Shown one piece after another: positions 13,066 to 34,726 of a stretch of DNA of 34,726 nucleotides. Source of the stretch: an uncultured Candidatus Saccharibacteria bacterium. Lineage in GTDB: Bacteria; Patescibacteriota; Minisyncoccia; Phycocordibacterales; UBA9973. Under the pieces are notes generated by a model that had not been told where the DNA came from, searched no databases, and saw only the letters and a program-made list of their open reading frames with translations. The DNA lies in NCBI GenBank assembly GCA_964469255.1, contig CAYYKS010000001.1:1-34726 (forward strand). Reading direction: 5' to 3'. The stretch's first letter is position 1; the number at the start of each line of letters is the position of its first letter. The position numbers and the translations under genes are program-made.

Positions 13066-13140
13066 ACTTATTTTAATAACTTGATTTATTACTTCTAATA
13101 TACTTTGGCCCAAAAGTCAATACCTTATTTATACCTATAT

Positions 13141-13169
13141 AGTATATCATACTATATGTAAAAAGTCAA
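13141..13169 (-). promoter_or_regulatory. Candidate promoter of the surface-protein gene
   Basis: On the minus strand: GGTATTGACTTTT (-35 TTGACT), 17 nt, TATACT. The same GGTATTGACTTTT string recurs at 13111-13123. Confidence 0.45.
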
Positions 13170-13192
13170 TACCCGGTTGTTTTTCTTGGATA

Positions 13193-13243
13193 CTCACTCT
13201 ATAAAATCATCAATTTTTAACATTAATAACTTTATAGAGTGAG
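13193..13243. terminator. 13-bp perfect hairpin at the downstream edge of the high-GC gene
   Basis: ctcactctataaa, 25 nt, tttatagagtgag. It sits 60 nt past the stop of the 13303..14118 gene. The loop is large, so a terminator role is uncertain. Confidence 0.3.
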
Positions 13244-13302
13244 GAAAGCGTGGGGCAATCCTGCACCCTAACCTTCCTCGCTAGATTGTTGATTGTAGAT
13301 GA

Positions 13303-14118
13303 TCAGCGTGCGAAATTCTGCTGACCGTTTCTGTTCTTGTTCCCGAGAACGAAGAGAACGCTGAACTCCTTCTTCTTCGCGTTGAACCCGACGTTGACGA
13401 AGTTTTGCGCCGATGCCACGCTCGATGCGCCAACACCGGGGCCGCTCTTCGGACACGTGTTGGGGTCCTTCGTGGCGGTGCACTTCACCTTGTCACCTTC
13501 AGTGTCGACGCGAAGCTTGTCTTCTTTGAGGACAAGGTAAGTTGCGACACCAATCACCACTCCGGTAGCAATCCACGACTTGGTTCCCCAATGGAACCCG
13601 TCATCGTCGAGATTTGGCGATGCGACCCGTCGTTCTGACTGCGGAAGCACGTTCACCGTGATGATGTTCGTGTTCATGTTGGCGCCAACACCTTCGGGAA
13701 CGTTCGTGCCAGCCGCGATGCGCTCGCCTGCCTCGCGGATCGTTTCCGGATTGCGGGGCATTGTGGTACCCGTCAGCCATCCTTTGGTCACGGGGTTCTT
13801 GCAGAGGACGATCACTTGCTGCTTGCCGTTCGGTGAATTCGCGGCGATGTGGCCCGCGGGCATCACGCAAGTGTGCTCACGTCCATCGCCAGCCAGCTGA
13901 GTTATGAGCTGGGGGCTGTCCGTCTTGATGAGCGTCCAGTCGGCGGGCGGGACCCACTTAAAGGTCCTGTCCACCGGGTCGGCGCCGACGTTACAGATGG
14001 GTGCCCCACCGGTATTGATCGTCTGCTCTTCGCAGCCAATCGGGGAACTTCCGGCGAAGGCGGGTACGAAGGTTACGAGGACGAGCAGAGCGGCGAGGAC
14101 GAACTTGAGTTGGGTCAT
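13303..14118 (-). CDS. High-GC foreign gene: secreted/membrane-anchored hypothetical protein
   Basis: 271 aa. The ORF spans exactly the GC-rich block. There is a strong G/C preference at third codon positions. It has a signal peptide (LAALLVLVTFVPAFAG), one internal TM segment (WIATGVVIGVATYLVL) and scattered Cys. I recognise no family. Confidence 0.75.
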   Translation of the reverse strand: MTQLKFVLAALLVLVTFVPAFAGSSPIGCEEQTINTGGAPICNVGADPVDRTFKWVPPADWTLIKTDSPQLITQLAGDGREHTCVMPAGHIAANSPNGKQQVIVLCKNPVTKGWLTGTTMPRNPETIREAGERIAAGTNVPEGVGANMNTNIITVNVLPQSERRVASPNLDDDGFHWGTKSWIATGVVIGVATYLVLKEDKLRVDTEGDKVKCTATKDPNTCPKSGPGVGASSVASAQNFVNVGFNAKKKEFSVLFVLGNKNRNGQQNFAR

Positions 14119-14229
14119 GGTGTCTCCAGTGGGTTAATTGTGATGAGCGAATGGTGGGGAGCGTCATTGCCCCCACCACCGCAAGTCTGCGAAGTGAGAG
14201 CTGGGGCGCACGCCCTACCTCTAGGTATT

Positions 14230-14258
14230 CTTATATCACAGTATGGGCAAAAAGTCAA
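14230..14258 (-). promoter_or_regulatory. Candidate promoter of the high-GC gene
   Basis: On the minus strand: TTGACT, 17 nt, TGaTATAAG (extended -10), in AT-rich host-like DNA. This leaves a ~110-nt GC-rich leader. Confidence 0.45.
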
Positions 14259-14345
14259 GCCCATACCAAGATAAAAGAGTACGATTCTCCCACTAAGCCG
14301 TTAGTTAGGAATAGGTTATTACAAACAAAATATCACTGCGGTCGA

Positions 14346-14393
14346 CACATAAATACAAAAAGCCAGAGCAGTCTGGCTTTTTGTATTTATGTG
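14346..14393. terminator. 22-bp perfect hairpin abutting the tRNA 3' end
   Basis: cacataaatacaaaaagccaga-gcag-tctggctttttgtatttatgtg. It overlaps the last 2 nt of the tRNA and has T-tracts within both arms. Confidence 0.6.
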
Positions 14394-14463
14394 TCCCCGC
14401 GTGGAATCGAACCACGATCTCAAACTCCGCAAGCTTGAATTCTATCCGTTAAACTACGGGGAC
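14392..14463 (-). tRNA. tRNA-Arg, anticodon GCG by hand folding; CCA not encoded
   Basis: Hand-folded cloverleaf: acceptor GUCCCCG/CGGGGAC, D-arm GUUU-AACGGAUA-GAAU, anticodon arm CAAGC-UUGCGGA-GUUUG, 4-nt variable region, T-arm CGUGG-UUCGAUU-CCACG, discriminator A. Confidence 0.8.
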
Positions 14464-14512
14464 ATTATTTAATTATTTTAAAACCATAGCAATTTTTTCT
14501 ACTAAAGTAAAA

Positions 14513-22350: not shown

Positions 22351-24621
22351 ATGACTAATAAAACATTAAAAATTAAAGGGATGCATTGTGCTAGTTGTTC
22401 AACTATTATCACCAACAAGGTTTCTAAGTTGGCGGGTATAGATGATATAAACGTTAATTTTGCCACAGAAAAAGCAACAGTTTCTTTTGATGGAAATGCT
22501 GTCTCTGTAAAACAAATGAACGATGAGATTGAAAAACTCGGGTATACATTTATTGATGAAGATGCACCTAAGGCAGGGGAAGACCACAGTATGCATACTG
22601 GAATGAACCAATCTAAAGAAGAAAAAACAAAAGAATTACTTGTCTTGCAAGACAAGACTCAGTTTGTACTACCTATTGCTCTGCTCGTATTCGCGCTTAT
22701 GATGTGGGACATAGGTGCCAAAATATTTTCTTCAATACCAAATCTGGCTTTGCCGATGTCTATTTTTAACACTGTTTCTATGATACTGGCCAGTGTTGTA
22801 TTCTTTTGGATAGGACAACCTTTTTTGCAAGGAGTAGTAAGGTTTGCTAAATACCGTGTCGCCAATATGGATACCCTGATTGGTATCGGAACCCTCGTTG
22901 CATATCTATACAGTATTATTATTACACTTTTCCCTCAAGTGAGACTTGCTTTAAGTTTACCTGAAACTACTTATTTTGATGTGACTATTGTGGTTATCGG
23001 TTTTGTGGTGTTAGGCAAATATCTCGAAGCACGATCAAAACTTCGTACTGGTGAAGCCATAGAAAAACTTCTTGGTCTGCAGGCAAAAACAGCCTTGCTG
23101 TGGCGCAATGGCTCCGAAGTAGAAGTTCCTGTAAGTGAAGTACAGATCGGAGACATACTTATTGTAAAACCAGGATCAAAAATCCCTGTCGATGGAGAAA
23201 TCGTTGAAGGGTATTCATCTATCGATGAATCCATGATCACAGGTGAATCGGTTCCTGTGGATAAAAAGATTGGTGATATTGTTGTAGGTGCAACAATAAA
23301 CAAGCAAGGTAATTTTAAATTTAAAGCTACAAAAATTGGATCTGATACAGTGCTCGCTCAGATTATAAAAATGGTTGAGGATGCCCAAGGATCAAAAGCC
23401 CCAATCCAGGCATTGGCCGATAAAATTTCTAGTGTCTTTGTACCAACAGTGTTGGTCATAGCTATCGTGACATTGATTCTGTGGCTTACGGTTGGCGCAT
23501 CAGCTATTGGTTTTTCTACCGCTCTTTCTTATGGAATTTTCTCTTTTGTTGGGGTACTTGTTATCGCATGTCCTTGTGCATTGGGTTTGGCTACTCCGAC
23601 TGCAATCATCGTCGGTGTTGGTAAGGGGGCAGAGCATGGTATTCTCATTCGAAACGCTGAAGCCTTAGAAAAACTTAGTCATGTAGATACTGTTGTTCTC
23701 GACAAGACGGGAACCATTACCAAAGGAAAACCAGAAGTGACTGATATTATTTCTTTTGGCGGAGAGTGGACAGAGAAAGACATACTTCGCATCAGTGCGA
23801 GCGTAGAAAAACTTTCTGAACATCCACTAGCAGATGCTGTTGTAGTGAAAGCTGACGAACAAAAAATACTTCTCGATAACGTTGTAAATTTTCAAGCTCT
23901 AGAAGGCGTTGGAGTGGAAGGGTTGATTGGTGCTAAAAATGTATCGATTCACAAACCACTAAAAGATGGATCAAATGCGGATAAAATAAAAGAGTTACAA
24001 GAGCAGGGCAAAACAGTTGTTGTTGTCGAAGTTGATAAAAAACAAATTGGACTTATTGCGCTCGCTGATACCTTGAAAGAAGAATCAAAAGAGGCTGTGG
24101 CTAAACTGCGAGCTAGAAATATTAAAGTGATAATGCTCACCGGGGATAATCATTTAGCGGCCAGCTATATAGCCAAACTCGCGGGTATTGATGATGTAAT
24201 CTCCGAAGTCATACCTGCAGAAAAGAGAGGTAAAATAAAAGAATTGCAAGATGGCGGGGCAACCGTAGCGATGGTTGGGGATGGAATAAACGATGCTCCA
24301 GCTCTAGTCCAAGCAGATGTCGGTATCGCCATGGGAACAGGTACTGATGTGGCTATCGAATCTGCGGGGATAACACTTCTAGGTGGTGATGTTTCAAAAA
24401 TTGCTCAAGCAATAAAATTGTCACACATAACCATGAGGGGAATAAAACAAAATCTTTTCTGGGCTTTTATATTTAATGTTGTTGGTATACCTGTGGCCGC
24501 AGGACTTTTCTATCCATTATTTGGATGGTTACTAAATCCAGCTTTTGCCGGACTGGCTATGGCATTTTCTAGTGTTTCTGTGGTATCGAATTCATTACGA
24601 ATTAAGGCAAAGAAATTATAA
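22351..24621 (+). CDS. copA: Copper-translocating P1B-type ATPase
   Basis: 756 aa. N-terminal HMA (GMHCASCS), TGES, CPC ([11 protein letters not shown]), [15 protein letters not shown]. Confidence 0.95.
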
Positions 24622-24673
24622 ATGTTAAAATAGAATACTAGAGAAAATAGGTGAAATCTTGCAAATAGAATTT

Positions 24674-25285
24674 ATGAACTTAAAACATATAAAATTATTC
24701 ATAGGCTTACTAGCACTTCTTGCTTACATTGGCATAGGGGTGTTTGGCTTGTTTCAATTGGGGCACATAAGTGAGATGCCTACGGCTAATTGCTCATATT
24801 CAGTGAATAACTTCTCGATATGTGAGAATAGTATTAGGCATATTGATCATTGGCATCAATTCTCAAATATAACACTGGCATCCCTATTTATTTTTTCGGT
24901 TTTTATGCTTGGAATAGTTTTGTATTTTTTAAGTTATCACAAGTTTTTAAACCAGAATCAATATTTTTATAGGTGGAAATATTATATTGATTACCAAAAA
25001 TCCTTAAATTATCTACATAAAATAATCACATGGTTATCACGTTTCGAGAATAGTCCTCCTGTGCATAGAGCTTTTATTATTATTTCTAATTTTAAAAAAC
25101 TATGCAAACAAAAAAAACTAAGAATAATGCAAAATATAAATTCATTGACCCAGAAATGGCAATCGATCTTGTGTGCGGAATGGAGCTCAATGCAGAGAAT
25201 ATTAAGGCAAACACAGACTACAAAGATAAAACCTACTACTTTTGCGCTATCCACTGCAAAAATCACTTTGCAGCCGATCCTGTAA
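24674..25285 (+). CDS. Hypothetical membrane protein; 3' end uncertain
   Basis: Two hydrophobic helices and Cys/His-containing loops in the first ~135 aa. The last 184 nt overlap the better-supported YHS gene in another frame, and their translation looks non-protein-like. Confidence 0.4.
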   Translation: MNLKHIKLFIGLLALLAYIGIGVFGLFQLGHISEMPTANCSYSVNNFSICENSIRHIDHWHQFSNITLASLFIFSVFMLGIVLYFLSYHKFLNQNQYFYRWKYYIDYQKSLNYLHKIITWLSRFENSPPVHRAFIIISNFKKLCKQKKLRIMQNINSLTQKWQSILCAEWSSMQRILRQTQTTKIKPTTFALSTAKITLQPIL

Positions 25286-25302
25286 AATATGTAGGAGAAT
25301 AA
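25102..25302 (+). CDS. YHS/TRASH-domain metal-binding protein
   Basis: 66 aa. DLVCGMEL...YYFCAIHCKNHFAADPVKY is the YHS pattern. Confidence 0.8.
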   Translation: MQTKKTKNNAKYKFIDPEMAIDLVCGMELNAENIKANTDYKDKTYYFCAIHCKNHFAADPVKYVGE

Positions 25303-25325
25303 ATTATTAAACTAACTATAAAAAT

Positions 25326-25955
25326 ATGAACAATAATCAAAACAATAAAATAGGATTTGGCATAGGATGGATTGCTGTTGGTCTAATTCTAGGTATGTTT
25401 ATTATTCCAATGATGCGTAGTAATTCAGTTGTTTCAAACAATATTCAAAATACAAGTTCAAAGACTGTAAATGTAGGTGGGGTTGATCAGCACTTCATAG
25501 AGCAGATGATACCTCACCACGATGGAGCTATCGCGATGGCAAACATGGCGTTTGTAAAGTCTAATCGCACAGAAGTTAAAACCCTCGCTAAAGAAATCAT
25601 AGACGCTCAAGAAAGAGAGATAAAAGATATGCAAGGTTGGTATAAAAATTGGTTTGGAAAAGATGTGAATACTCAAAATACATTTTCTATGATGAATGGC
25701 GGAGGAATGATGTCGGGAGGAGGGATGCACATGGGTGGAAAGGAAGATGTCACAGCGCTAGAAAATGCAGCGGATTTCGATAAGGCATTTATTGAGGGAA
25801 TGATTCCACATCATCAATTGGCTATTATGATGGCTCAAATGTTGAAATCTGGTACCAATAGACCCGAGATGCTTACTCTTGCTAACAATATTATTGAATC
25901 ACAGTCAGAAGAGATAACCAAAATGCAAGGTTGGTATAAGAGTTGGTATAAATAA
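25326..25955 (+). CDS. DUF305-family protein with Met/Gly-rich insert
   Basis: 209 aa. Two MIPHH motifs plus MMNGGGMMSGGGMHMGG between them, a methionine-rich stretch of the kind seen in Cu(I)-binding proteins. Confidence 0.85.
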   Translation: MNNNQNNKIGFGIGWIAVGLILGMFIIPMMRSNSVVSNNIQNTSSKTVNVGGVDQHFIEQMIPHHDGAIAMANMAFVKSNRTEVKTLAKEIIDAQEREIKDMQGWYKNWFGKDVNTQNTFSMMNGGGMMSGGGMHMGGKEDVTALENAADFDKAFIEGMIPHHQLAIMMAQMLKSGTNRPEMLTLANNIIESQSEEITKMQGWYKSWYK

Positions 25956-25963
25956 AATTATAT

Positions 25964-26497
25964 ATGAAAATCGAGCATAGATTTTTAATAGGTACGGTAT
26001 TGGTGACTGGTGTTATTGTAGTCATGTTGTCTTTGTCTAGTGAAAAAGACGAGATAAAAGAAGTGGATAGATTCAGTAAAGCCCCATTGGGAGAAAAGAT
26101 AAGTGAAATGAAATCACCACATGTGAAATTAGGGGCTTCTCATGAACCATATAATTCTAACCCTCCTACTTCGGGGCCACATACAGGTAATGATGTAGCA
26201 GGAGCAGGTATTAAAGAAAAACCTGTCGTAGATGAAATCGTTGTGCACAGTTTAGAGCATGGCGCTGTGGTCCTCTGGTACAGAGATGACTTAAAATCTG
26301 AAGATATAAATATGCTGAAAAATATCTTTAATGAAGCCTCTGGGAAAAAAATTATGATGCCACGTTCAAATATGGATACACCCATAGCGCTTACATCATG
26401 GACTTATCTTATGAAATTAGATAAGGTTGACGCTGAAAAAATAAAAGAATTTATCGAAATTAATAATGATAGAGGCCCTGAGAAAGCTTCAATATAA
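25964..26497 (+). CDS. DUF3105-like membrane-anchored protein
   Basis: 177 aa. PPTSGPH and HSLEHGAVVLWY patterns. Confidence 0.7.
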   Translation: MKIEHRFLIGTVLVTGVIVVMLSLSSEKDEIKEVDRFSKAPLGEKISEMKSPHVKLGASHEPYNSNPPTSGPHTGNDVAGAGIKEKPVVDEIVVHSLEHGAVVLWYRDDLKSEDINMLKNIFNEASGKKIMMPRSNMDTPIALTSWTYLMKLDKVDAEKIKEFIEINNDRGPEKASI

Positions 26498-26501
26498 ATA
26501 T

Positions 26502-27509
26502 ATGAATAAATACACATTTCATGTTTCGGGTACTCATTGTGCGTCGTGTAAGATCTTGATTGAAGATGTTTTAACTGAGCAAGATTTTATTAAAAATTCA
26601 AAAGTAGATTTAAATAATGAAACAGTAGAAATCGAAACTGATAGCGAACAGAGTGCGGAAGAAATTGCCACCTTGATTACCAGTAAAATAAAACCAAATG
26701 GATATGCGCTCTCAGTTGAGAGAATGGCGGAAGTTAGAGAGGGTGATGACGTTATTTGGAAAGCTATACCCCTTGGACTTTTATTCTTGGCCTTATTTTT
26801 TGTATTGCAAAAATCTGGGATTTTAAATCTAGGTATCGGTGGTAATACTACTCCAACCACAAGTTTTGTTATTGGGCTCATAGCTTCGGTTTCTTCATGT
26901 CTCGCTATAGTCGGGGGATTGGTTTTGTCGCTCTCTGCAAAAATATCAGAAGACAATACGAGCGATACTAAAACTTTTTTACTTTTTCACATTGGCCGGT
27001 TGGTTAGCTTTGCGGTACTCGGAGGGGTGCTGGGAGTGATAGGTAATGTTGTTGGAATTAATTTTACTTTCACCGCGATGCTCGGGATTATAGCATCCTT
27101 GGTGATGCTCATACTTGGTTTAAATTTGGTTGGAGTATTTGCTAACAATAAACTTACTTTAAACTCAGGAGTTTTTAATTTTTTTAGAAGAATAGAGCAC
27201 AAGACCTTTACTCCACTTATCATTGGTTTTGGAACATTTTTCCTGCCTTGTGGCTTTACTCAGTCTATGCAAGTTTCGGCTATTTCTAGTGGTTCATTTG
27301 TGTCTGGAATGCTCATCATGTTTGCTTTTGCTTTAGGTACATTGCCCATGCTCGCCCTGCTTTCATTTGGGTCAGCATCTTTTGCTCAAAGTAAATATGC
27401 ACCTTTGTTCTTTAAATCTGCGGGGGTTGTGGTTATAGGTCTAGGTATATTTGCACTACTTTCAGGGCTCGCGGGGCTCGGTATTATAAATCCCTTATTT
27501 AGTATTTAA
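26502..27509 (+). CDS. HMA-domain fused to a multi-pass TauE/SafE- or DsbD-like membrane domain
   Basis: I prefer the ATG at 26502 (the previous gene stops at 26497). N-terminal GTHCASCK HMA domain, then about 6 TM helices with a conserved PCG. Confidence 0.8.
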   Translation: MNKYTFHVSGTHCASCKILIEDVLTEQDFIKNSKVDLNNETVEIETDSEQSAEEIATLITSKIKPNGYALSVERMAEVREGDDVIWKAIPLGLLFLALFFVLQKSGILNLGIGGNTTPTTSFVIGLIASVSSCLAIVGGLVLSLSAKISEDNTSDTKTFLLFHIGRLVSFAVLGGVLGVIGNVVGINFTFTAMLGIIASLVMLILGLNLVGVFANNKLTLNSGVFNFFRRIEHKTFTPLIIGFGTFFLPCGFTQSMQVSAISSGSFVSGMLIMFAFALGTLPMLALLSFGSASFAQSKYAPLFFKSAGVVVIGLGIFALLSGLAGLGIINPLFSI

Positions 27510-27536
27510 TTTGGTATAATTCGAATATAAAATTGT

Positions 27537-27923
27537 ATGAATAAAACAGTTTCAATTATTATAACTCTCAGTCTTATCCTTGCCGTAGGGATTATTTTTT
27601 CAGACTCAGGAACGAAAGGCACAGATCAAGCTGTGCAAAATAGTGTCATAAAAGATGGGGTACAATACATTACAATCGAGGCTAAGGGGGGATATTCACC
27701 ACAGACTAGTAATGCCAAAGCTGGAATTCCAACAAAACTAATCGTAAAAACAAGCGGGACGTATGACTGCTCGGCTTCTTTGGTTATCAAATCAATTGGT
27801 TTTCAAAAAATATTATCTCAGAACGGAGAAGAAATAATTGACCTAGGTACTCCAAAGGCAGGGGATAAATTCCAAGGAGTGTGCGGAATGGGTATGTATA
27901 GTTTTATAGTTAACTTTAGTTAA
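27537..27923 (+). CDS. Small secreted cupredoxin-like protein
   Basis: 128 aa. Signal anchor, beta-rich, C...C.MGM-type ending (GVCGMGMY). It is the last gene of the metal island. Confidence 0.55.
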   Translation: MNKTVSIIITLSLILAVGIIFSDSGTKGTDQAVQNSVIKDGVQYITIEAKGGYSPQTSNAKAGIPTKLIVKTSGTYDCSASLVIKSIGFQKILSQNGEEIIDLGTPKAGDKFQGVCGMGMYSFIVNFS

Positions 27924-27968
27924 AGAATAGACGCCCTTGGTTTCTATTCTTATGGCCGTAGAGTACCT

Positions 27969-28198
27969 ATTCCATCAAAACCAAGGCGGTTTTGATGGAA
28001 TTGCCTAGTTTTACTAGATTTATGGCTGCGTTACAAACTGCGGAAGCGGTGACCTGCCTACCGGCAGGCAGGGATTCGCCGATACTGCGGCGGGTGCTTT
28101 TCCATCTCACTACGTTCGCAGGGAAAAGCCTTTCGAACCTCACACGCGAGCAAAGCAGTTTGCTCGCTCGCTCCGCAGTTTTTCACTGCGTTTTAAAC
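27969..28198 (+). repeat. GC-rich structured repeat family, copy B (long form), contiguous with the left 191-bp inverted repeat
   Basis: It opens with a perfect 14-5-14 palindrome, attccatcaaaacc-aaggc-ggttttgatggaat (27969-28001). Next come attgcc, gatttatgg, ctgcgttacaaactgcgg, several perfect 6-9 bp hairpins, tttcgaacc, and a second ctgcgttttaaactgcgg. Confidence 0.65.
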
Positions 28199-28389
28199 TG
28201 CGGTGTATCTTGGACAAAGTTCGAAATTACTTCGAGCTAAATCCAAACGATTAAATTACTAAAAATGGACTCGGCAGGGCGAAACAATATTTTTGGGGAT
28301 ATGGGTTCGCCCTGCCTCGGCTAAATGTTTTTGAAATTCGGCGAGATTCAGAACTCTGCCCGCAGGAGGGGTTTGGGGAGGAATGCGGG
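28199..28389 (+). repeat. Left copy of a perfect 191-bp inverted repeat
   Basis: Checked base by base in 10-nt blocks: the reverse complement of 28199-28389 equals 33311-33501 with no mismatch. Confidence 0.95.
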
Positions 28390-28470
28390 AAAACCAAAAT
28401 TCAAAATGCTCGGTGCCTACGGTCATCATAACATATTGTGTTCACGCAAAAGGGGTGCACCCTCGGCATC

Positions 28471-28783
28471 CGCCTCGGGCATTTCCGCTAGGGCTACGAG
28501 TGCCTAGATGCCTATGAGCGAGCAAACAAAAAGACAAACGGCTCAAATACCAGGAAATGAGCCGTTTGGAAATTGCTCGCCCTTCTTGGGGAGAGGAAGT
28601 TTCCTCTCCCCGGGTCGGGACTACACTCTCGGATTACCGAGAGTGTTCCGCCCTCGCCATCCCCACTCTACGTTTTTCAATATTATGTTTGGTGTGTAGC
28701 TTTCGCTTTCGATTTCTGGATTGCAATTCGGGTCAGGCACTCGTCCTTTAGCCGTGGACACCCTAGCGGAAATGCCCGAGGCG
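28471..28783. other. Non-coding, hairpin-dense element closed by a 23-bp (+9-bp) inverted repeat; a structured RNA or a MITE-like relic
   Basis: cgcctcgggcatttccgctaggg (28471-28493) is the exact reverse complement of 28761-28783, and acgagtgcc (28496-28504) pairs with ggcactcgt (28737-28745). Inside lie perfect hairpins at 28536-28567 (10 bp), 28588-28611 (10 bp) and 28624-28645 (9 bp). No credible ORF. Confidence 0.5.
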
Positions 28784-28882
28784 CAAATACATCGTGCTTG
28801 CCCCAGAGTTTTTGTGATTACACAAAAACTCTACCCCACCCGTGCGTGCACGCGAAAATCACTCCCTGAAAATTTTAAATAT

Positions 28883-29482
28883 TTAAATTCGAGAATACGA
28901 AACTCCTTTCCCAGTTTTTCCGCTTTGTTTTATTTTTCCTTCTTTCTCAAGTTGTGAGAGATACCGAGTTGCTGTGGCATCAGACACGTGCAAATACTTT
29001 TCTACTTCGTCGTTTGTGATTTTGGAATGCTGAAGAAACAAACTCATAACTCGATCGAGTTTCTTGCGTTTCCTAAATTGAATTGCGTTTCGAGCTGTGA
29101 TTAGAAGTTCGCGGGCGAGAGATTTTTTAGATACTTCACGAACAGGCTTCGCCTGTTCGCTTTGAGAAATTTCCTGTTCCTCTAACGGCTCATTTACTGG
29201 TATTTGAGCCGTTTCGGGTTTAGAAGTCCGATTCTCCTCAATTTCAGGGCTAGTTTCTGGTTCTGGCTTTATGGCTTCAGGCTCGTTTTGGGGTGAATTA
29301 TCATTATTGACCGGAATGGCACTATCTGCGTTCCCAGGGCTTTCTAGGGCCTCTGGAGGCAGGTCGGGACTAGTGGAAACAGGGGTAATTTCAGGTGCTT
29401 GCTCGGTAGGCTCTTGGGGGCTTGGTGGAATAGAGTTTTCTGTGGAAGTTGGGTTTTGGGCTATATTTTCCTCGTCGGGCAT
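28883..29482 (-). CDS. Winged-helix DNA-binding protein with a Pro/Glu-rich disordered N-terminus
   Basis: I prefer the ATG at 29482, 7 nt after the ATPase stop. The C-terminal ITNDEVEKYLHVSDATATRYLSQLEKEGKIKQSGKTGKGVSY is a wHTH pattern. Confidence 0.7.
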   Translation of the reverse strand: MPDEENIAQNPTSTENSIPPSPQEPTEQAPEITPVSTSPDLPPEALESPGNADSAIPVNNDNSPQNEPEAIKPEPETSPEIEENRTSKPETAQIPVNEPLEEQEISQSEQAKPVREVSKKSLARELLITARNAIQFRKRKKLDRVMSLFLQHSKITNDEVEKYLHVSDATATRYLSQLEKEGKIKQSGKTGKGVSYSRI

Positions 29483-29489
29483 AAATATA

Positions 29490-31994
29490 TTATACACCTC
29501 TAAAGATTCTGTAATAGACGAGTTTAGAAAACTCTATTGTTGCAAAATAAACTATAACCATTAGTAAAATTATTCCCAAAGATTCGTAGGAAGGTTTAAC
29601 AAATTTTAAAAATCTTTCTCCCCAATAAGTGAATGGCAAAATAATTGCAAGACCCGCTGGAATAATGCAAAGAAGTGAAACAACTACTGACGGCTTAGTT
29701 CCTTGCCAAAATAATTTTTTAGTTCTAATGGAAAAAATAAGCAAGAGTTCAATAAGCGTTGAACCGATAAATAAATTTGTCTGCAATATCGCTGAACCAT
29801 TTTTCTTAAATAGAAGAAAAAATATAAAAACAAATACAGCATTGATAATACCAAACACAAGCGATGTCAAAACAATTTCGTTAACATTGTATGCTCTAGG
29901 TTTTTTTAATTCTAATTTATCAACTTTATCAAAAGATATGGCTATCATCGGTGTATCGGTTAGTAAATTAAGAAGCAACACTTGCACTGGCAACATCGGC
30001 AAAAATGGTGAAAAAATCATGGCGACAGCAACAGCATAAAAATTTCCAAAGTTAGATATAAGGGTGGTTTTTAGATACTTCACCATGTTAGCAAATATCT
30101 CACGCCCTCCTTTTATTCCGTCAATAATAACTGACAAGCTAGAATTTAACAGAACTATATCAGAAGCACTTCGGGCAATATCTGACGCAGTATTAACTGC
30201 TAAAGCTACACTCGCAAGTTTAAGTGCGGGAGCATCATTTATTCCATCTCCAAGAAACCCCACTTCGTATTTCTTTTCCAAAAGTTCAATAACCCGATAT
30301 TTTTGTTCAGGCGATACACGAGCAAAGACATGCACATTTTCAACTGCAATTATTTGATCGGCCTCCGATAATTTCTCAAATTCTTCTCCGTTCATAACTT
30401 CACTTTCGTTTTTGATAATGCCAGTTTTTCTAGCAACAGCAATAGCAACATTTTTACTATCGCCAGTTAGAATTTTTATTCTTACTCCCAACTCCTCGGC
30501 TTGCAGTATTGCGGGGATAGCAGATTCTTTGATCGGGTCGCTAAAAGAAATAGCCCCAATATAATCAAGATTTTTTTCTGCTGTTGCATCATACGCAGAA
30601 CCACCAGTCCAATTTTTCATAGCAAGTGCGATAACTCTTTCTCCTAACATTTCACGCTCGGCAATCCAAATCGAAATTTCTTTTTTTCTTTCTTCGGAAA
30701 TGTTTGAACACAAACTAACAATAATTTCGGGAGCACCACGAACAATCAACTTATTTTCATTTTTTAATTCCACAAGAACACTATTTCTTTTTCTTTCAGG
30801 GTCAAACGGTAGTTCATTGATTTTTTGTGATTGATTGAGTTCTTTGTCTGTGCCAAGTTTTGCAAGAAGTGCAATATCAAATGAACTACTACCTTGCTCT
30901 GACGAAGAACAGAGCGCGCCACTCAAAAGGCAAAAACTTTCATTTTCGGCATGAAAAGCACTGACCGACATTTTATTTTCTGTGATTGTTCCTGTCTTGT
31001 CTACACACAAAACTTCAATGCTCCCCAAGTCCTCAACAGCCGAGAGTCGTTTTACAACTACATGCTTTTTAGCGAGATTAAGCGATCCTTTGGAAAAAGA
31101 AAGTGCCGCAACTACTGGCAAGGTTTCAGGAATTACACTAACCGCAAGTGCAATCGAGAAAAGAATTACATCTGCAAAACTTGTCCTGTTGTCTGCTTTT
31201 TTTACTAAGAAATTTATAATTAAAACAAGCGCGAGGGTCGCAAGAATGATTTTTAAAATCCATTTACTTAATTTTGATATTCCTTTTTCAAATGTGCTTA
31301 CTCCCTCGCTTTCGGCAGTTAATTTTGTTATAGAACCTATTTCTGTATTTTTCCCCGTAGCTACAACAATTCCCGCGCCCTTACCCTGCATAATTGTTGT
31401 GCCAGAAAATCCCATATTTCTTGCATCATGTATTCCAGAAATATTTTTTTGATTCAAAACCAGAGAAGTTTTCAAAACTGACATTGATTCTCCAGTTAAG
31501 ATAGATTCATCAACGAGTAAATTGTCTGCTCGAATGAAACGAACATCAGCAGGCAAAATATTGCCTGGTTCAAGCACACAAATATCGCCCAATACTATCT
31601 CCTCACTTTTTATAACAACTTCAACTGCACCCCTTAAAACTCTGCAATGATTCACTAATATTTTCTTTAGTAATTCAACAGATTTTTGCGAATTGTATTC
31701 TTGAACAAATCCCAAAATCGCGCCTATCAAAACAAACGAGGCGATAAAAATACTATCTATTGTTTCTCCAAGATACAAAGCAAGAAGCGATGCAAAAATT
31801 AAAATATAAACAAATGGCGAAGCAAATTGTTGGAGTAATACCTGCCACCATTTTGTTTCTTTGACCAGAATTTTATTCTGTCCGTATTTTTTTAAATTTT
31901 CCTTTGTTTTTGTTTCAGTTAAGCCGTTGGCACTACTGCCAAATTCCAAATAGATGTCCGAAATATCTTTTTCAGCAAAAGATTGATAGGACAT
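29490..31994 (-). CDS. Cation-transporting P-type ATPase (P2/P3-like; Mg2+/Ca2+-type, ion not assignable)
   Basis: I prefer the ATG at 31994 (the listed start at 32009 is a TTG). Motifs: [34 protein letters not shown], about 10 TM helices. No HMA domain and no CPC motif. Confidence 0.9.
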   Translation of the reverse strand: MSYQSFAEKDISDIYLEFGSSANGLTETKTKENLKKYGQNKILVKETKWWQVLLQQFASPFVYILIFASLLALYLGETIDSIFIASFVLIGAILGFVQEYNSQKSVELLKKILVNHCRVLRGAVEVVIKSEEIVLGDICVLEPGNILPADVRFIRADNLLVDESILTGESMSVLKTSLVLNQKNISGIHDARNMGFSGTTIMQGKGAGIVVATGKNTEIGSITKLTAESEGVSTFEKGISKLSKWILKIILATLALVLIINFLVKKADNRTSFADVILFSIALAVSVIPETLPVVAALSFSKGSLNLAKKHVVVKRLSAVEDLGSIEVLCVDKTGTITENKMSVSAFHAENESFCLLSGALCSSSEQGSSSFDIALLAKLGTDKELNQSQKINELPFDPERKRNSVLVELKNENKLIVRGAPEIIVSLCSNISEERKKEISIWIAEREMLGERVIALAMKNWTGGSAYDATAEKNLDYIGAISFSDPIKESAIPAILQAEELGVRIKILTGDSKNVAIAVARKTGIIKNESEVMNGEEFEKLSEADQIIAVENVHVFARVSPEQKYRVIELLEKKYEVGFLGDGINDAPALKLASVALAVNTASDIARSASDIVLLNSSLSVIIDGIKGGREIFANMVKYLKTTLISNFGNFYAVAVAMIFSPFLPMLPVQVLLLNLLTDTPMIAISFDKVDKLELKKPRAYNVNEIVLTSLVFGIINAVFVFIFFLLFKKNGSAILQTNLFIGSTLIELLLIFSIRTKKLFWQGTKPSVVVSLLCIIPAGLAIILPFTYWGERFLKFVKPSYESLGIILLMVIVYFATIEFSKLVYYRIFRGV

Positions 31995-32001
31995 AAAAGT
32001 T

Positions 32002-32886
32002 TTAAGCAACCTTTTTTACTCCAGCCAGTTCTTTATCTCTTTTAGCTTCTAAATCTGATAAATCTTTTTGTGCCTTTGTGGAGCGTTCTTTTACATATAC
32101 TTCACCTTTTTCGGATTCGGCGGCTGCGTTTAACCAGAAATTTGTTTTTTCTAACATCTGATTAAATAAATCTCTCAATTTTAACACTTTTCCTCTATCG
32201 CTTATGTCTGATGTCATTTCAAGCATTCTTTTGTATTCTGGCTGATTAACTAATTTTCCAATAGTCATACCTATTTTGTATTTATCTTCCGATTTCAAAC
32301 TAGGGTCATAAGAAATCAAGACCACTTCTCCCGTATCGGGCGTTTTAGCATAGCTAAAATCAAGATCAAGATAAGGGGCTAATTGATTTTCTAATGTTGC
32401 GATATTTCCTTTAAAATTCCTCACTTCCTTCACGCCTTCAGGATTTTTTACAAAACCATGAGCTTGCCCATACATATCTTTTTGAGTTAAAAGGTTATTC
32501 CACTCATCGCGATATTTATCATAAATTCCCTTACTTTCTGCATCAAGCGCAACAGCTCCCGCTTCTGTTATGCTTTTTCCTTTAACTTCTGCAATTCTAC
32601 TTTCCGTGTCCGTTTTCACGGCATCAATTTGTGCATCAACTACTTCCGTTCTTTTTCCAATTTCGTCAGCAGAACCACCCATACCCTCAACTTGGGTAAT
32701 TTGAGCAGGTGGTGTTGTTTCAACAGCTTGAGCTTTCGCTAAAACAGCTTCAAGTTTTTTTCTCGCTAACTCAACAACATCCTCGTGGCCTCCCATAGCT
32801 TCCGCATCATCAATCAAACTTTCAATTTCTTCTTTACTTTCTGCTTTCCCTAAATCTCGCTTTAATAAATCTTTTTCTGAATCCAT
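32002..32886 (-). CDS. Hypothetical soluble protein, coiled-coil-rich
   Basis: 294 aa, no recognised domain. It is tightly packed in the operon, stopping 7 nt before the ATPase start. Confidence 0.65.
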   Translation of the reverse strand: MDSEKDLLKRDLGKAESKEEIESLIDDAEAMGGHEDVVELARKKLEAVLAKAQAVETTPPAQITQVEGMGGSADEIGKRTEVVDAQIDAVKTDTESRIAEVKGKSITEAGAVALDAESKGIYDKYRDEWNNLLTQKDMYGQAHGFVKNPEGVKEVRNFKGNIATLENQLAPYLDLDFSYAKTPDTGEVVLISYDPSLKSEDKYKIGMTIGKLVNQPEYKRMLEMTSDISDRGKVLKLRDLFNQMLEKTNFWLNAAAESEKGEVYVKERSTKAQKDLSDLEAKRDKELAGVKKVA

Positions 32887-32903
32887 AAAATTATCCTACT
32901 TAT

Positions 32904-33065
32904 TTATAATCCTAGTGATGCCCGAATCGCATCAACTTTTTGAGCTTCAAGCTCTTTTATATAACCGCGAATAATTTCTTTACGCTCACCGCCAAGCTTT
33001 TCAAGTTTTTGCATAGCTTCGCTATATATTTCTTCAATCTTTTTTGCTTGTTCTTCTGGTGTCAT
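32904..33065 (-). CDS. Small 53-aa helical protein (below the ORF-track cutoff)
   Basis: MTPEEQAKKIEEIYSEAMQKLEKLGGERKEIIRGYIKELEAQKVDAIRASLGL. It is found by translating the minus strand. It stops 17 nt before the 294-aa gene, and an AGGA lies in that gap. Confidence 0.45.
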   Translation of the reverse strand: MTPEEQAKKIEEIYSEAMQKLEKLGGERKEIIRGYIKELEAQKVDAIRASLGL

Positions 33066-33271
33066 AAAATAAAAAAACTGGCAATGAGCCAGCTAAGACG
33101 CAAAAAGCTCCTAGCCAGCGATAGCTCAAAGAGCTACCCATATCCCTTTCGGGATATGACACAACCAGTGTGAACTCTGACTAGGAGTTCTTTATACTGG
33201 TTGTGTTTTTCGACCATGCCCCTGTTGCCAAAGGTTTAGGTCTTCTTATTAAGTTGTATTTTTATATATTA
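33066..33271 (-). promoter_or_regulatory. Candidate promoter plus ~190-nt structured leader with a terminator-like hairpin
   Basis: All on the minus strand. Promoter: TGGATA, 17 nt, TGtTAATAT (-10 at 33266-33271). Then an 11-bp stem acacaaccagt/actggttgtgt enclosing gaactc/gagttc. Then catatccc-gaaa-gggatatg, then ggtagctc/gagctatc. Finally ctggc-tcatt-gccag followed by a T7 run, 8 nt before the ATG. Confidence 0.4.
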
Positions 33272-33310
33272 ACACTCTCTATATTTTTTATCCACAGCCC
33301 AAAACCCCCG

Positions 33311-33501
33311 CCCGCATTCCTCCCCAAACCCCTCCTGCGGGCAGAGTTCTGAATCTCGCCGAATTTCAAAAACATTTAGCCGAGGCAGGGCGAACCCATA
33401 TCCCCAAAAATATTGTTTCGCCCTGCCGAGTCCATTTTTAGTAATTTAATCGTTTGGATTTAGCTCGAAGTAATTTCGAACTTTGTCCAAGATACACCGC
33501 A
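33311..33501 (-). repeat. Right copy of the perfect 191-bp inverted repeat
   Basis: Exact reverse complement of 28199-28389. Confidence 0.95.
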
Positions 33502-33613
33502 CGAATTTGAAATCAATACCCCCGCGAAAAAATGCGCCCGCGCGAAGCGCGGGTGATGTGGGCGAATCTGAATTAAACCCAAACCCCGCCAGGATTTTCC
33601 ACGCTCCGCGTGG
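33502..33613 (-). repeat. GC-rich structured repeat family, copy C (inverted relative to A and B), contiguous with the right inverted repeat
   Basis: The reverse complement reads ggaaaatcctggcggggtttgggt...gattcgcc, which aligns with the copy A opening caccaaaatccaggcggtttttgggtgattgcc. Contains hairpins cccgcgc-gaa-gcgcggg and ccacgc-tcc-gcgtgg. Confidence 0.5.
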
Positions 33614-33782
33614 CTCTTCGTTGCCAATGCAAAAACAAATATGGTAATATTGACTGGTAACCAACCCAACAGCTTCGCTTTTTATTTTGCAATTTTTTAA
33701 TTGTGAATCTTAAAGGGCATCTCTGTCAGTTTAGCGAAAGCTGGATTGGTTACACAGAGTTGCCCTTTTGGGTTTTTATACC

Positions 33783-34726
33783 ATGAACCAAACCAAAAAG
33801 TTTTTCATATATACTCGCAAGTCCACGGATGACAAAGACCGTCAGGTTAGAAGTATTTCCGATCAACTTTCTGAATTGAAAGAATTGGCGATAAAAGAAA
33901 GTTTGGAAATAGTCGATGTCTTTGTCGAAAAGCAGACCGCCAAAATACCAGGTCGTTCCGTATTTAATGAAATGATGTTGAGAATGGAGGCGGGCGAAGC
34001 ATCTGGTATTTTGGCGTGGCACCCCGATCGACTTGCGAGAAATTCCGTTGACGGAGGGAAAATAATATATTTGGTTGATACTGGAGTTATCAAGGACTTG
34101 AAATTTTCAACTTTTTGGTTTGATCCGACACCGCAAGGAAAGTTCATGTTGAGTATCGCTTTTTCTCAATCCAAATATTATGTGGACAATCTAAGTGAAA
34201 ATATTAAGCGCGGACATAGAAACAAAGTGAAGGATGGAATATGGCCTCAAATGTCTCCGCTTGGGTATGTGAATGTAAAAGGTAAAGGCATTGTTCCCGA
34301 CATTCTAAACGCTTCACTTATTAAAAAGACATTTGAGGCATATGCAACTGGAAATTTCACTTTGAGACAAGTCCGCGAAAAGTTTAATGAGCTTGGATTG
34401 AAAAGAAAAAGCGGAAAAGAACTTGCGGTGTCAAACTATCAGCAAATCCTCAAAAATCCCATTTATACAGGACTAATGAAATATAATGGGGAGATTTTTG
34501 AGGGAAAGCACGAGCCGATTATTTCAAAGAAACTTTTTGACCAAGCGCAAGAAGTGATGAGCCGAAAATCCAAACCGCATAGTAAAGGACTGCACCCATA
34601 TATTTATCGAGGATTTTTCCGTTGCGGAGAATGTGGATGTTTCATTACTACCGAACAACAAAAAGGACATCACTACCTGCGTTGCACCAAACGAAAAAAT
34701 CCCTGCACTCAACCTTATATGCGTGA
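33783..34726 (+). CDS. Large serine recombinase, 3' end cut by window edge (not in the supplied ORF track)
   Basis: Manual translation from the ATG at 33783 stays open to the window end (314 codons). The sequence runs MNQTKKFFIYTRKSTDDKDRQVRSISDQ (catalytic Ser context), GILAWHPDRLARN and KFMLSIAFSQSKYYVDNLSENIKRG. A recombinase domain (IWPQMSPLGY...PIYTGL) and the start of a zinc ribbon (FRCGECGC...LRCTK) follow. Confidence 0.9.
   Translation, partial: MNQTKKFFIYTRKSTDDKDRQVRSISDQLSELKELAIKESLEIVDVFVEKQTAKIPGRSVFNEMMLRMEAGEASGILAWHPDRLARNSVDGGKIIYLVDTGVIKDLKFSTFWFDPTPQGKFMLSIAFSQSKYYVDNLSENIKRGHRNKVKDGIWPQMSPLGYVNVKGKGIVPDILNASLIKKTFEAYATGNFTLRQVREKFNELGLKRKSGKELAVSNYQQILKNPIYTGLMKYNGEIFEGKHEPIISKKLFDQAQEVMSRKSKPHSKGLHPYIYRGFFRCGECGCFITTEQQKGHHYLRCTKRKNPCTQPYMR

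Follow-up and report, generated by a model that had tools for sequence, protein, structure and literature searches.

Elements that depend on large serine recombinases (LSRs), such as those of phiC31, Bxb1, A118/LI, SPbeta (SprA), SCCmec (Ccr) and the fdxN element (XisF), encode an enzyme composed of Resolvase, Recombinase and zinc-ribbon domains, occupy a defined chromosomal site with a short common core that is visible in occupied and empty alleles, and carry accessory cargo. The known elements hold a single attP and are flanked by attL and attR in direct orientation. We analyzed a perfect inverted repeat of 191 nucleotides (nt) beside an LSR gene in a stretch of 34,726 nt from an uncultured Candidatus Saccharibacteria bacterium (contig CAYYKS010000001.1; the whole stretch is hereafter called the window). 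The locus shares the features listed above, and we conclude with high confidence that each arm of the repeat is a copy of the P′ half of the attachment site of an LSR element, whose insertion point is the 3′ end of a tRNA-Ser(UGA) gene. It differs from the known LSR elements by an extra intact attachment site (P-core-P′) in inverted orientation, by two near-perfect inverted-repeat pairs, and by its target, which is the extreme 3′ end of tRNA-Ser genes.

Several other systems resemble parts of this arrangement. In the Hin, Gin, Cin and Pin systems a serine recombinase gene likewise lies in or beside a segment bounded by inverted sites, and in the tail-fibre genes of Mu and P1 inversion alters the 3′ coding end of a gene, which is here the gene of the recombinase itself. 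However, those enzymes are small invertases acting on 26-34-bp sites with a Fis-bound enhancer, whereas the present enzyme is an LSR of ~500-550 amino acids (aa) and the arms measure 120 and ~200 bp. Hin-type systems switch within populations, while changes of orientation are known here among relatives only. The R64 shufflons also have adjacent segments, alternating shared sites and swapped C-terminal coding ends, but they use the tyrosine recombinase Rci, 19-bp sfx sites and pilV, in contrast to the two segments, the serine recombinase and the mobile-element context of this locus. The yeast 2-micron plasmid (FLP/FRT) is a circle in which identical inverted repeats with the recombinase target separate two unique segments, and an excised circle of the present element would have the same form; FLP is a tyrosine recombinase acting on identical sites. 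The repeat copies of the 2-micron plasmid and of plastids evolve in concert, as the arms described here do, and those of plastids are kept identical by homologous recombination alone. Finally, the integrases of the SSV1 and Mx8 types, with attP inside int, have a reading frame that spans its own core and a gene 3′ end that is altered by integration, but they are tyrosine integrases without a second inverted site able to restore the gene by inversion. In its behaviour the present element comes closest to a combination of three of these systems: the LSR island, the circle with two repeats of the 2-micron type, and the invertible segment by which the 3′ coding end of a gene is exchanged.

Results

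The two arms are 100% complementary and lie 4921 nt apart (Table 1), exactly at the coordinates of the original prediction, and a perfect repeat of this length in 34.7 kb is far beyond chance. Their outer edges read ...TTAAAC/TGCGG... on the left and ...CCGCA/CGAATT... on the right, the 5-nt cores belonging to the inverted repeat. Two independent assemblies cover parts of the structure (contigs and loci used for comparison carry L numbers). L001 (GCA_020049755.1) covers positions 33126 to 28199; its end coincides with the outer boundary of the left arm, where a repeat-induced branch of the assembly is expected. L007 (GCA_020047435.1) runs from 33765 to 31833, from the right outer flank through the right arm into the operon, in the arrangement of the window. 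Same-strain look-ups with the 294-aa, 199-aa, cupredoxin and 53-aa proteins gave L007 as the sole contig across an arm, oriented as in the window, and none that crosses the left arm or holds a flipped junction.

The left border of the inserted DNA was located by means of island-free relatives, which were retrieved with the cupredoxin protein whose gene lies next to the repeat on its left side. All ten contigs (L008-L017) match the window up to position 28203 (99.9-100%, nine of them at 100%) and diverge after it. Nine read on into the reverse complement of an intact tRNA-Ser(UGA) gene (TGCGGAAGCGGTGAGATTCGAAC...; L008 10664-10749), beyond which lie genes for DUF5652, RuvX and PilM. The TGCGG at the left junction represents the last bases of the tRNA-Ser gene on the opposite strand. 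Since the island-free strains are identical up to 28203 and then enter tRNA-Ser, TGCGG is the common core and the insertion junction; the empty and occupied alleles part exactly there, and the right junction lies beyond the window. On this comparison, everything to the right of the core is inserted DNA, and the left flank (B) is host DNA. In L011, which has the window backbone, the sequence changes directly after TGCGG to a different one (L011 10668-11005). This indicates that the tRNA-Ser site hosts more than one element, differing between strains. B itself contains at 28040-28053 an extra copy of the tRNA-Ser 3′ end (TGCGGAAGCGGTGA) followed by ~145 nt of GC-rich hairpins; this copy is common to the island-free strains and was probably left behind by a previous insertion at this tRNA gene.

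The outward continuations of the arms had been described beforehand as related but diverged. This was not the case: the local alignment of B with the right flank C (33502-33782) scored 17, the level of shuffled sequences (mean 17.2 ± 2.3). By sequence comparison, C is instead P, the other half of the attachment site of the element. An intact second site, P-core-P′ (site M, 33311-33616), is found in inverted orientation between the cargo and the LSR gene, just upstream of the latter. The right arm is one half of it. The proposed functional tie between the repeat and the neighbouring recombinase is supported. In relatives, the proximal P is a 120-nt arm, and its inverted twin past the LSR gene encodes ~40 C-terminal residues.

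The LSR gene runs off the end of the window. Its translation (33783-34724) contains the resolvase domain PF00239 at residues 8-153 (E 2.3e-17), with YTRKST...DRLAR motifs, together with PF07508 and PF13408, and full-length homologues measure 494-550 aa. On these domains the enzyme is a bona fide LSR. Its relatives in PDB, the SPbeta and A118 integrases, are distant (E ~1e-9), and so are Ccr and XisF.

The same layout recurs in relatives. A search of metagenome contigs with a 25-mer from the outer end of the arm yielded 14 groundwater loci, whereas an exact 40-mer from the arm had no match in viral contigs or genome contigs. In all 14 loci P′ starts at (T)GCGG, and its outward neighbour is either unrelated host DNA or a P arm. 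One of them, L023, reads tRNA-Ser(CGA)/P/LSR gene/P inverted/TGCGG/P′, with a 100% inverted repeat of 120 nt around the LSR gene. The full layout is present in L034, a 148-kb contig of a metagenome-assembled genome, where a 202-nt, 100% P′ pair with ~2 kb of cargo inside is followed by a 120-nt, 100% P pair around the LSR gene and then by tRNA-Ser. The complete design in relatives is thus tRNA-Ser, a 120-nt inverted repeat around the LSR gene, a ~200-nt inverted repeat around 1.5-6.4 kb of cargo, and host DNA.

At E ≤ 1e-30, 7781 homologues of the LSR were found; the 120 best of them are 83-91% identical, and the named matches span many candidate phyla of the Candidate Phyla Radiation (CPR). 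Many LSR contigs are just 1.5-2.3 kb long, as would be expected if the repeats break assemblies. We surveyed 83 LSR loci, 80 of them from GTDB genomes. An inverted repeat surrounds the LSR gene in 68 of the 83, mostly of 120 nt at 97-100%. A tRNA-Ser gene (anticodons GCU, GGA, UGA, CGA) touches the arm on the 3′ side of the LSR gene in roughly 58 loci, and lies on its 5′ side in 10, three of which have one on both sides. At least 22 loci have a second pair of 190-273 nt at 97-100% that encloses 1.5-6.4 kb just upstream and has its core in common with the proximal P arm; they include a complete chromosome of Saccharibacteria, OZ246398.1 (L092). A tRNA-Ser gene adjoins the distal P arm in most genomes with two pairs. 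In the 15 complete elements compared, (TG)GCGG is all that the three sites have in common, and the intact inverted P-core-P′ is present in every one. The cargo varies: a DpnII-type restriction-modification system with an AAA_13 protein in L092, a type III system in L056, a nucleotidyltransferase with a helix-turn-helix (HTH) protein in L034. Furthermore, L108 is a complete flipped isomer (tRNA-Ser/P/LSR/P/core/P′) with the native LSR tail. In the open-access literature searched on serine recombinases of CPR/Patescibacteria, tRNA-Ser and inverted repeats, no description of this layout was found, which is no proof of novelty; the two-repeat design recurs in many of these ultra-small bacteria and is apparently undescribed so far.

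Some loci depart from the simple order. L056 (10626-13988), L078 (2523-10503) and L112 hold two or more complete units one after the other; every unit has an LSR of its own (the LSRs being 46-68% identical to one another) and separate inverted-repeat pairs, which suggests arrays of elements at one tRNA-Ser. In L063, L069 and L086 an LSR cassette without cargo lies between inverted tRNA-Ser genes, a pattern expected if the internal site had recombined with a second tRNA-Ser, which would imply a chromosomal inversion driven by the element. In L027 (838-1012) and L030 (183-337), tRNA-Ser is separated from TGCGG-P′ by a spacer of 85 or 41 nt and the LSR segment is deleted; in L028 (8915-9010) the LSR gene is cut off after ~15 codons. 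These three loci are decayed derivatives.

The 191-bp arms hold no transposase; their content amounts to 17 codons of the LSR tail and two hairpins. In relatives, the LSR reading frame continues through the distal P arm and the core, with no stop before the arm. P′ opens with the last 17-19 codons and the stop of this frame (approximately its first 56 nt), and a terminator-like hairpin comes next. The arms are not inert: the 3′ end of the LSR reading frame is made up of the distal P arm together with these 56 nt, and the P′ codons extend the frame whenever the LSR gene points towards a P′ arm. As the LSR tail is encoded there, conservation across the 14 groundwater loci is 93-95% in the outer 57 nt of the arm, as compared to ~77% in the remainder. 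The hairpin behind the tail shows compensatory changes in the alignment of the window with L024, L025, L028 and L029, and it keeps its pairing in the same manner in the close relatives L024, L087 and L106. In the window it is followed by a T-run; more distant P′ arms fold differently. We also considered P′ as a degenerate tRNA half. This was dropped, since ARAGORN and Rfam find no tRNA and the similarity to tRNA-Ser is confined to the core.

Two tail classes exist among the LSR proteins in the database. One is read into the tRNA (...FWRRGRDSNPR...), the tRNA gene being read backwards; the other is read into P′ (...FWRC(V/I)LDKVRxxFE(L/Q)NPDD*) and has a stop at its end in every case. The P′-encoded tail would be exchanged for the tRNA-antisense one by inversion of the LSR segment; inversion of the cargo would change no promoter and no coding end. 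Both classes occur in all six of the 90%-identity protein clusters sampled, and pairs across the classes reach 93-97% identity. This indicates that the LSR segment was reoriented many times recently; on an evolutionary scale, its flipping is evident from the protein tails. The neighbour of the intact P-core-P′ differs as well: the LOOT end of the cargo in the window, the S end in L024 and L028, and other cargo in L023 and L033 (LOOT and S are described below). Alternative arrangements of the kind that the original prediction proposed to look for in relatives thus exist.

The two P′ arms of one element are 94-100% identical (25 elements, 16 of them at 100% by gapped score), compared to a median of 66% between elements. 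In each of the 25 elements the closest relative of an arm is its own partner. This comparison shows concerted evolution of the arms and supports the earlier preference for ongoing exchange over an old duplication. A crossover at the core would swap the flanks but leave mismatches within the arms in place; the identity of the arms therefore speaks for homologous exchange between them or, in some cases, for a recent origin.

The features of the locus are listed in Table 1.

Table 1. Coordinates of the features at the inverted repeat and the LSR gene (positions in the window; a dot marks features without a strand).
Feature	Position	Strand	Remark
B, host intergenic DNA, hairpin-rich, downstream of the tRNA-Ser(UGA) target	27924-28198	.	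100% identical to island-free strains
Core O, TGCGG, left junction (attL-type site Z = B/core/P′)	28199-28203	+	island-free comparison
P′ arm copy 1 (left arm)	28199-28389	+	P′ homologues in L020-L033 always start (T)GCGG
LSR-tail codons within P′, 17 codons and stop (RCILDKVRNYFELNPND*)	28201-28254	+	peptide pattern kept, DNA diverged
Terminator-like hairpin in P′ (28270-28283/28306-28320; T-run 28328-28332)	28270-28332	+	compensatory changes, folds
Second P′ hairpin, CCCGCA/TGCGGG, G-rich loop GGAGGGGTTTGGGGAGGAA	28359-28389	+	also kept in the P′ variant of L117
S, highly structured non-coding tract, 493 nt	28390-28882	.	between left arm and winged-helix gene
204-aa protein, C-terminal winged HTH	28883-29497	-	weak Pfam HTH matches
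839-aa type III P-type cation ATPase (MgtA-like/proton-pump-like)	29490-32009	-	Pfam E1-E2_ATPase and others
294-aa protein	32002-32886	-	no family match
53-aa open reading frame (ORF), operon gene 1	32904-33065	-	identical protein in L117-L125
Terminator-like hairpin between LOOT and the 53-aa ORF	33076-33094	-	
LOOT RNA (RF03000), leader-like position	33120-33242	-	87.2 bits against gathering score 46.4, model 1-121 of 121
P′ arm copy 2 (right arm), part of intact site M = P/core/P′	33311-33501	-	spanned by L007
Core (CCGCA, 33497-33501) and proximal P arm	33497-33616	+	homology to L023, L029, L036
Unique region upstream of the LSR gene, one promoter-like match (33621-33650)	33621-33782	+	86% identical in L036
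LSR gene, first 314 codons	33783-34726	+	Pfam Resolvase, Recombinase, Zn_ribbon_recom

The enclosed cargo comprises a leader-like RNA and four co-oriented genes on the minus strand, much as the original prediction had read it; the RNA is LOOT. The ATPase scores 553 bits against TIGR01524, under the cut-off of that family. In a search of 27800-34000 with Rfam at a permissive E-value, LOOT was the sole match; the arms and S matched nothing. LOOT is matched here over its full length above the gathering score. Rfam classes it as a small RNA, whereas here and in L117 it is placed like a cis leader (promoter region, LOOT, terminator, ATPase operon). The order of LOOT, terminator hairpin and MgtA-like P-type ATPase operon is repeated in L117, and LOOT here looks like a cis-acting leader, possibly an ion-sensing one.

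The tract S, noted previously as hairpin-dense, is indeed highly structured: its folding compared to shuffled sequences gave z = -11.3 and -8.9 on the two strands, and an alignment of five sequences contains 85 consensus pairs, nine of them with compensatory changes. The multi-helix core of S (28440-28800) is closed by a long-range stem of 23 bp (28471-28493/28761-28783). S lies beside P′ and the winged-helix gene in L024, L025, L028, L029, L032 and L117, and the 204-aa gene itself is conserved beside S in L024, L025, L028, L032 and L117. Both are absent from the 83 LSR loci and are therefore cargo-specific. S could be an RNA gene, an element of a 3′ untranslated region or a DNA structure resembling an origin.

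A 31-nt hairpin of S (28536-28566) is 97% complementary to its own reverse complement at 29184-29214, within the winged-helix coding sequence; the two have the same stems and complementary 12-nt loops. The pair is kept in L117 (7551-7581/8193-8223), L024, L025, L028 and L032, where the proteins are merely 41-89% identical, and may represent kissing hairpins or paired operators. The motif AAATACCAG, which equals the loop of the S hairpin, occurs five times in the window as compared to 0.42 expected (28545, 29197, 33943, 34003 and 3765), and four of the five copies lie within the element. Two of them form an inverted repeat in the LSR coding sequence (33938-33958/33996-34016), likewise in L033.

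A sister copy of this cargo, 75-92% identical and without an LSR, was found in island-free strains beside a tRNA-Asp hotspot (L117-L125). It has its own repeat of 195 nt at 100%, the outer 115 nt of which are unlike the arms of the window. A clean empty site for this copy was not found; L126 is without the cargo yet otherwise rearranged, and no boundary could be defined. The hotspot (L117 2343-2778 and 8544-8778; L126 5613-6806) contains direct repeats of ~197 nt that end in copies of the tRNA-Asp 3′ end. One of its segments, with a 162-aa gene, is inverted between strains, and L126 carries a 328-aa gene instead of the ATPase cargo.

Elsewhere in the window, a copper-handling cluster (22351-27923) lies directly upstream of the integration site and encodes a CopA-type ATPase, DUF305, DUF3105, an HMA-DsbD_2 protein and the cupredoxin; it is shorter in relatives, without the DUF305 and DUF3105 genes. 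The interval 13001-14500 is GC-rich (0.51-0.54 compared to ~0.39 elsewhere) and spans a 271-aa ORF beside tRNA-Arg(GCG).

Discussion

With the arms taken as P′ halves of an LSR element at tRNA-Ser(UGA), the window reads B, TGCGG, P′ (an attL-type site), S and the LOOT-ATPase cargo, P′ inverted, core, P and LSR. By analogy with complete relatives, the end of the LSR gene, P inverted, the core and tRNA-Ser would follow beyond the window. The inserted DNA therefore holds a second, intact, inverted copy of P-core-P′, and this would create two back-to-back repeat pairs, one of ~200 nt around the cargo and one of 120 nt around the LSR gene. The identity of the arms is likely to be kept by homologous exchange, that is RecA-type gene conversion with occasional inversion. 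The excised form would likely be a circle in which two inverted attachment sites separate cargo and LSR; either site could integrate, and this alone would yield two of the isomers. More speculatively, a flip of the LSR segment would give the enzyme either its native C-terminus or a tail read antisense to the tRNA and so tune mobility, the conserved arms might act as a homology or recombination platform for the exchange of cargo cassettes in either orientation, and the internal site might capture a second tRNA-Ser gene. Capture of a second target would explain both the LSR cassettes with two tRNA-Ser genes (L063, L069, L086) and the cargo between host sequences in L117. No circular junction contig was found and no directionality factor was identified. 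We discarded a model in which the inverted sites anneal to give a folded single strand, as in the CTX phage, since B would then have to flank the cargo as inverted copies on either side, and this is not seen.

Several points weigh against this interpretation. The B-P′ junction is spanned by no independent contig that we found, L001 ending at it, and the LSR gene is cut off by the end of the window, so that the distal P arm and the tRNA-Ser gene of this copy are deduced from relatives. Between elements, the 20-25 nt of P beside the core are variable, an unusual property in a half-site of a recombinase. To our knowledge, characterised LSRs recombine attP with attB or attL with attR, never attP with attL or attR, and the interpretation leaves the origin of the inverted second site unexplained. 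The arms of L029 are ~93-94% identical and the P arms of L036 84%, so that homogenisation is not universal; the 100% identity in the window could in part reflect a recent insertion. The contigs with the L117-type copy are in a single orientation in nine of nine cases.

A first alternative is that the segment 28199-33501 is itself the mobile cassette, mobilised in trans by the LSR or swapped through its arms by homologous recombination. The sister copy argues for it, as the same cargo has a perfect 195-nt repeat of its own at a tRNA-Asp-linked site without any LSR (L117-L125); so do the cargo-less LSR cassettes between tRNA-Ser genes (L063, L069, L086) and the combination of highly variable cargo with conserved arms. 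However, no clean empty site of the L117 type is available, L126 being rearranged, the segment has neither a target-site duplication nor an arm-encoded transposase, and the outer 115 nt of the L117 arms do not resemble those of the window. The same facts are also accounted for if the internal site recombined secondarily with another target in the chromosome, and we regard an autonomous cassette as rather unlikely. The absence of a transposase from the arms and of a target duplication equally speaks against the composite transposon of the original prediction.

That prediction had also offered an inverton or a shufflon-like switch. In its programmed form, the LSR would use the TGCGG cores for frequent inversion of the 4.9-kb segment and of its own gene, rendering the ATPase operon, the recombinase or both phase-variable. 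Three sites that share a core and alternate in orientation would suit such a switch, as would the presence of the LSR segment in both orientations within every 90% cluster sampled, the differing neighbours of the intact site (L024, L028 and L033 compared to the window and L023) and a C-terminus that would change on flipping. Nevertheless, a crossover at the core is unable to homogenise a 191-bp arm, no LSR that we know of pairs attP with attL or attR, a small invertase and an enhancer are absent, and all nine contigs of the sister copy agree in orientation. A simple inverton or promoter switch is further contradicted by the internal position of the operon leader and its promoter region and by the identical ends, since a flip alters nothing within 191 bp of the operon; a shufflon-like switch is contradicted by the recombinase, which is of the serine and not of the Rci tyrosine type. 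We consider programmed switching unlikely, and less probable than the mobile cassette. An assembly artefact, be it a repeat that was collapsed or duplicated or two sequences joined chimerically where they share a short stretch, would agree with the lack of another contig across the B-P′ junction of the window and with the frequent breaking of assemblies at these repeats, but it is most improbable and the repeat is real, as both arms occur in the independent assemblies L001 and L007, the junction falls exactly on the core at the tRNA 3′ end, and the double-repeat layout recurs in at least 25 elements from separate projects, including a closed chromosome.

Returning to the insertion of an LSR element at tRNA-Ser, we put forward a broader proposal tentatively, judging the odds to be somewhat against it. 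These elements may form an undescribed class widespread in CPR bacteria, in which the LSR gene spans its own core, an inverted second site is present, LSR and cargo are both invertible, the tail toggle serves as a mobility switch, and the arms provide a platform for the exchange of cassettes with defence and transport genes at tRNA-Ser. Should the architecture function in the way proposed here, it would be a new design for a serine-recombinase element, with two inverted full sites, a gene that crosses its own site, and interchangeable cargo. The double-repeat layout explains why short-read assemblies are shattered at these loci. The sites A, M and Z, together with the tRNA-Ser 3′ end, are substrates with which to ask whether an LSR inverts DNA besides integrating it, a question of relevance for recombinase engineering. 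Elements of this kind abound in CPR bacteria, a group with poorly known mobile elements, and would shuttle restriction-modification, toxin-like and ion-pump genes between these reduced genomes.

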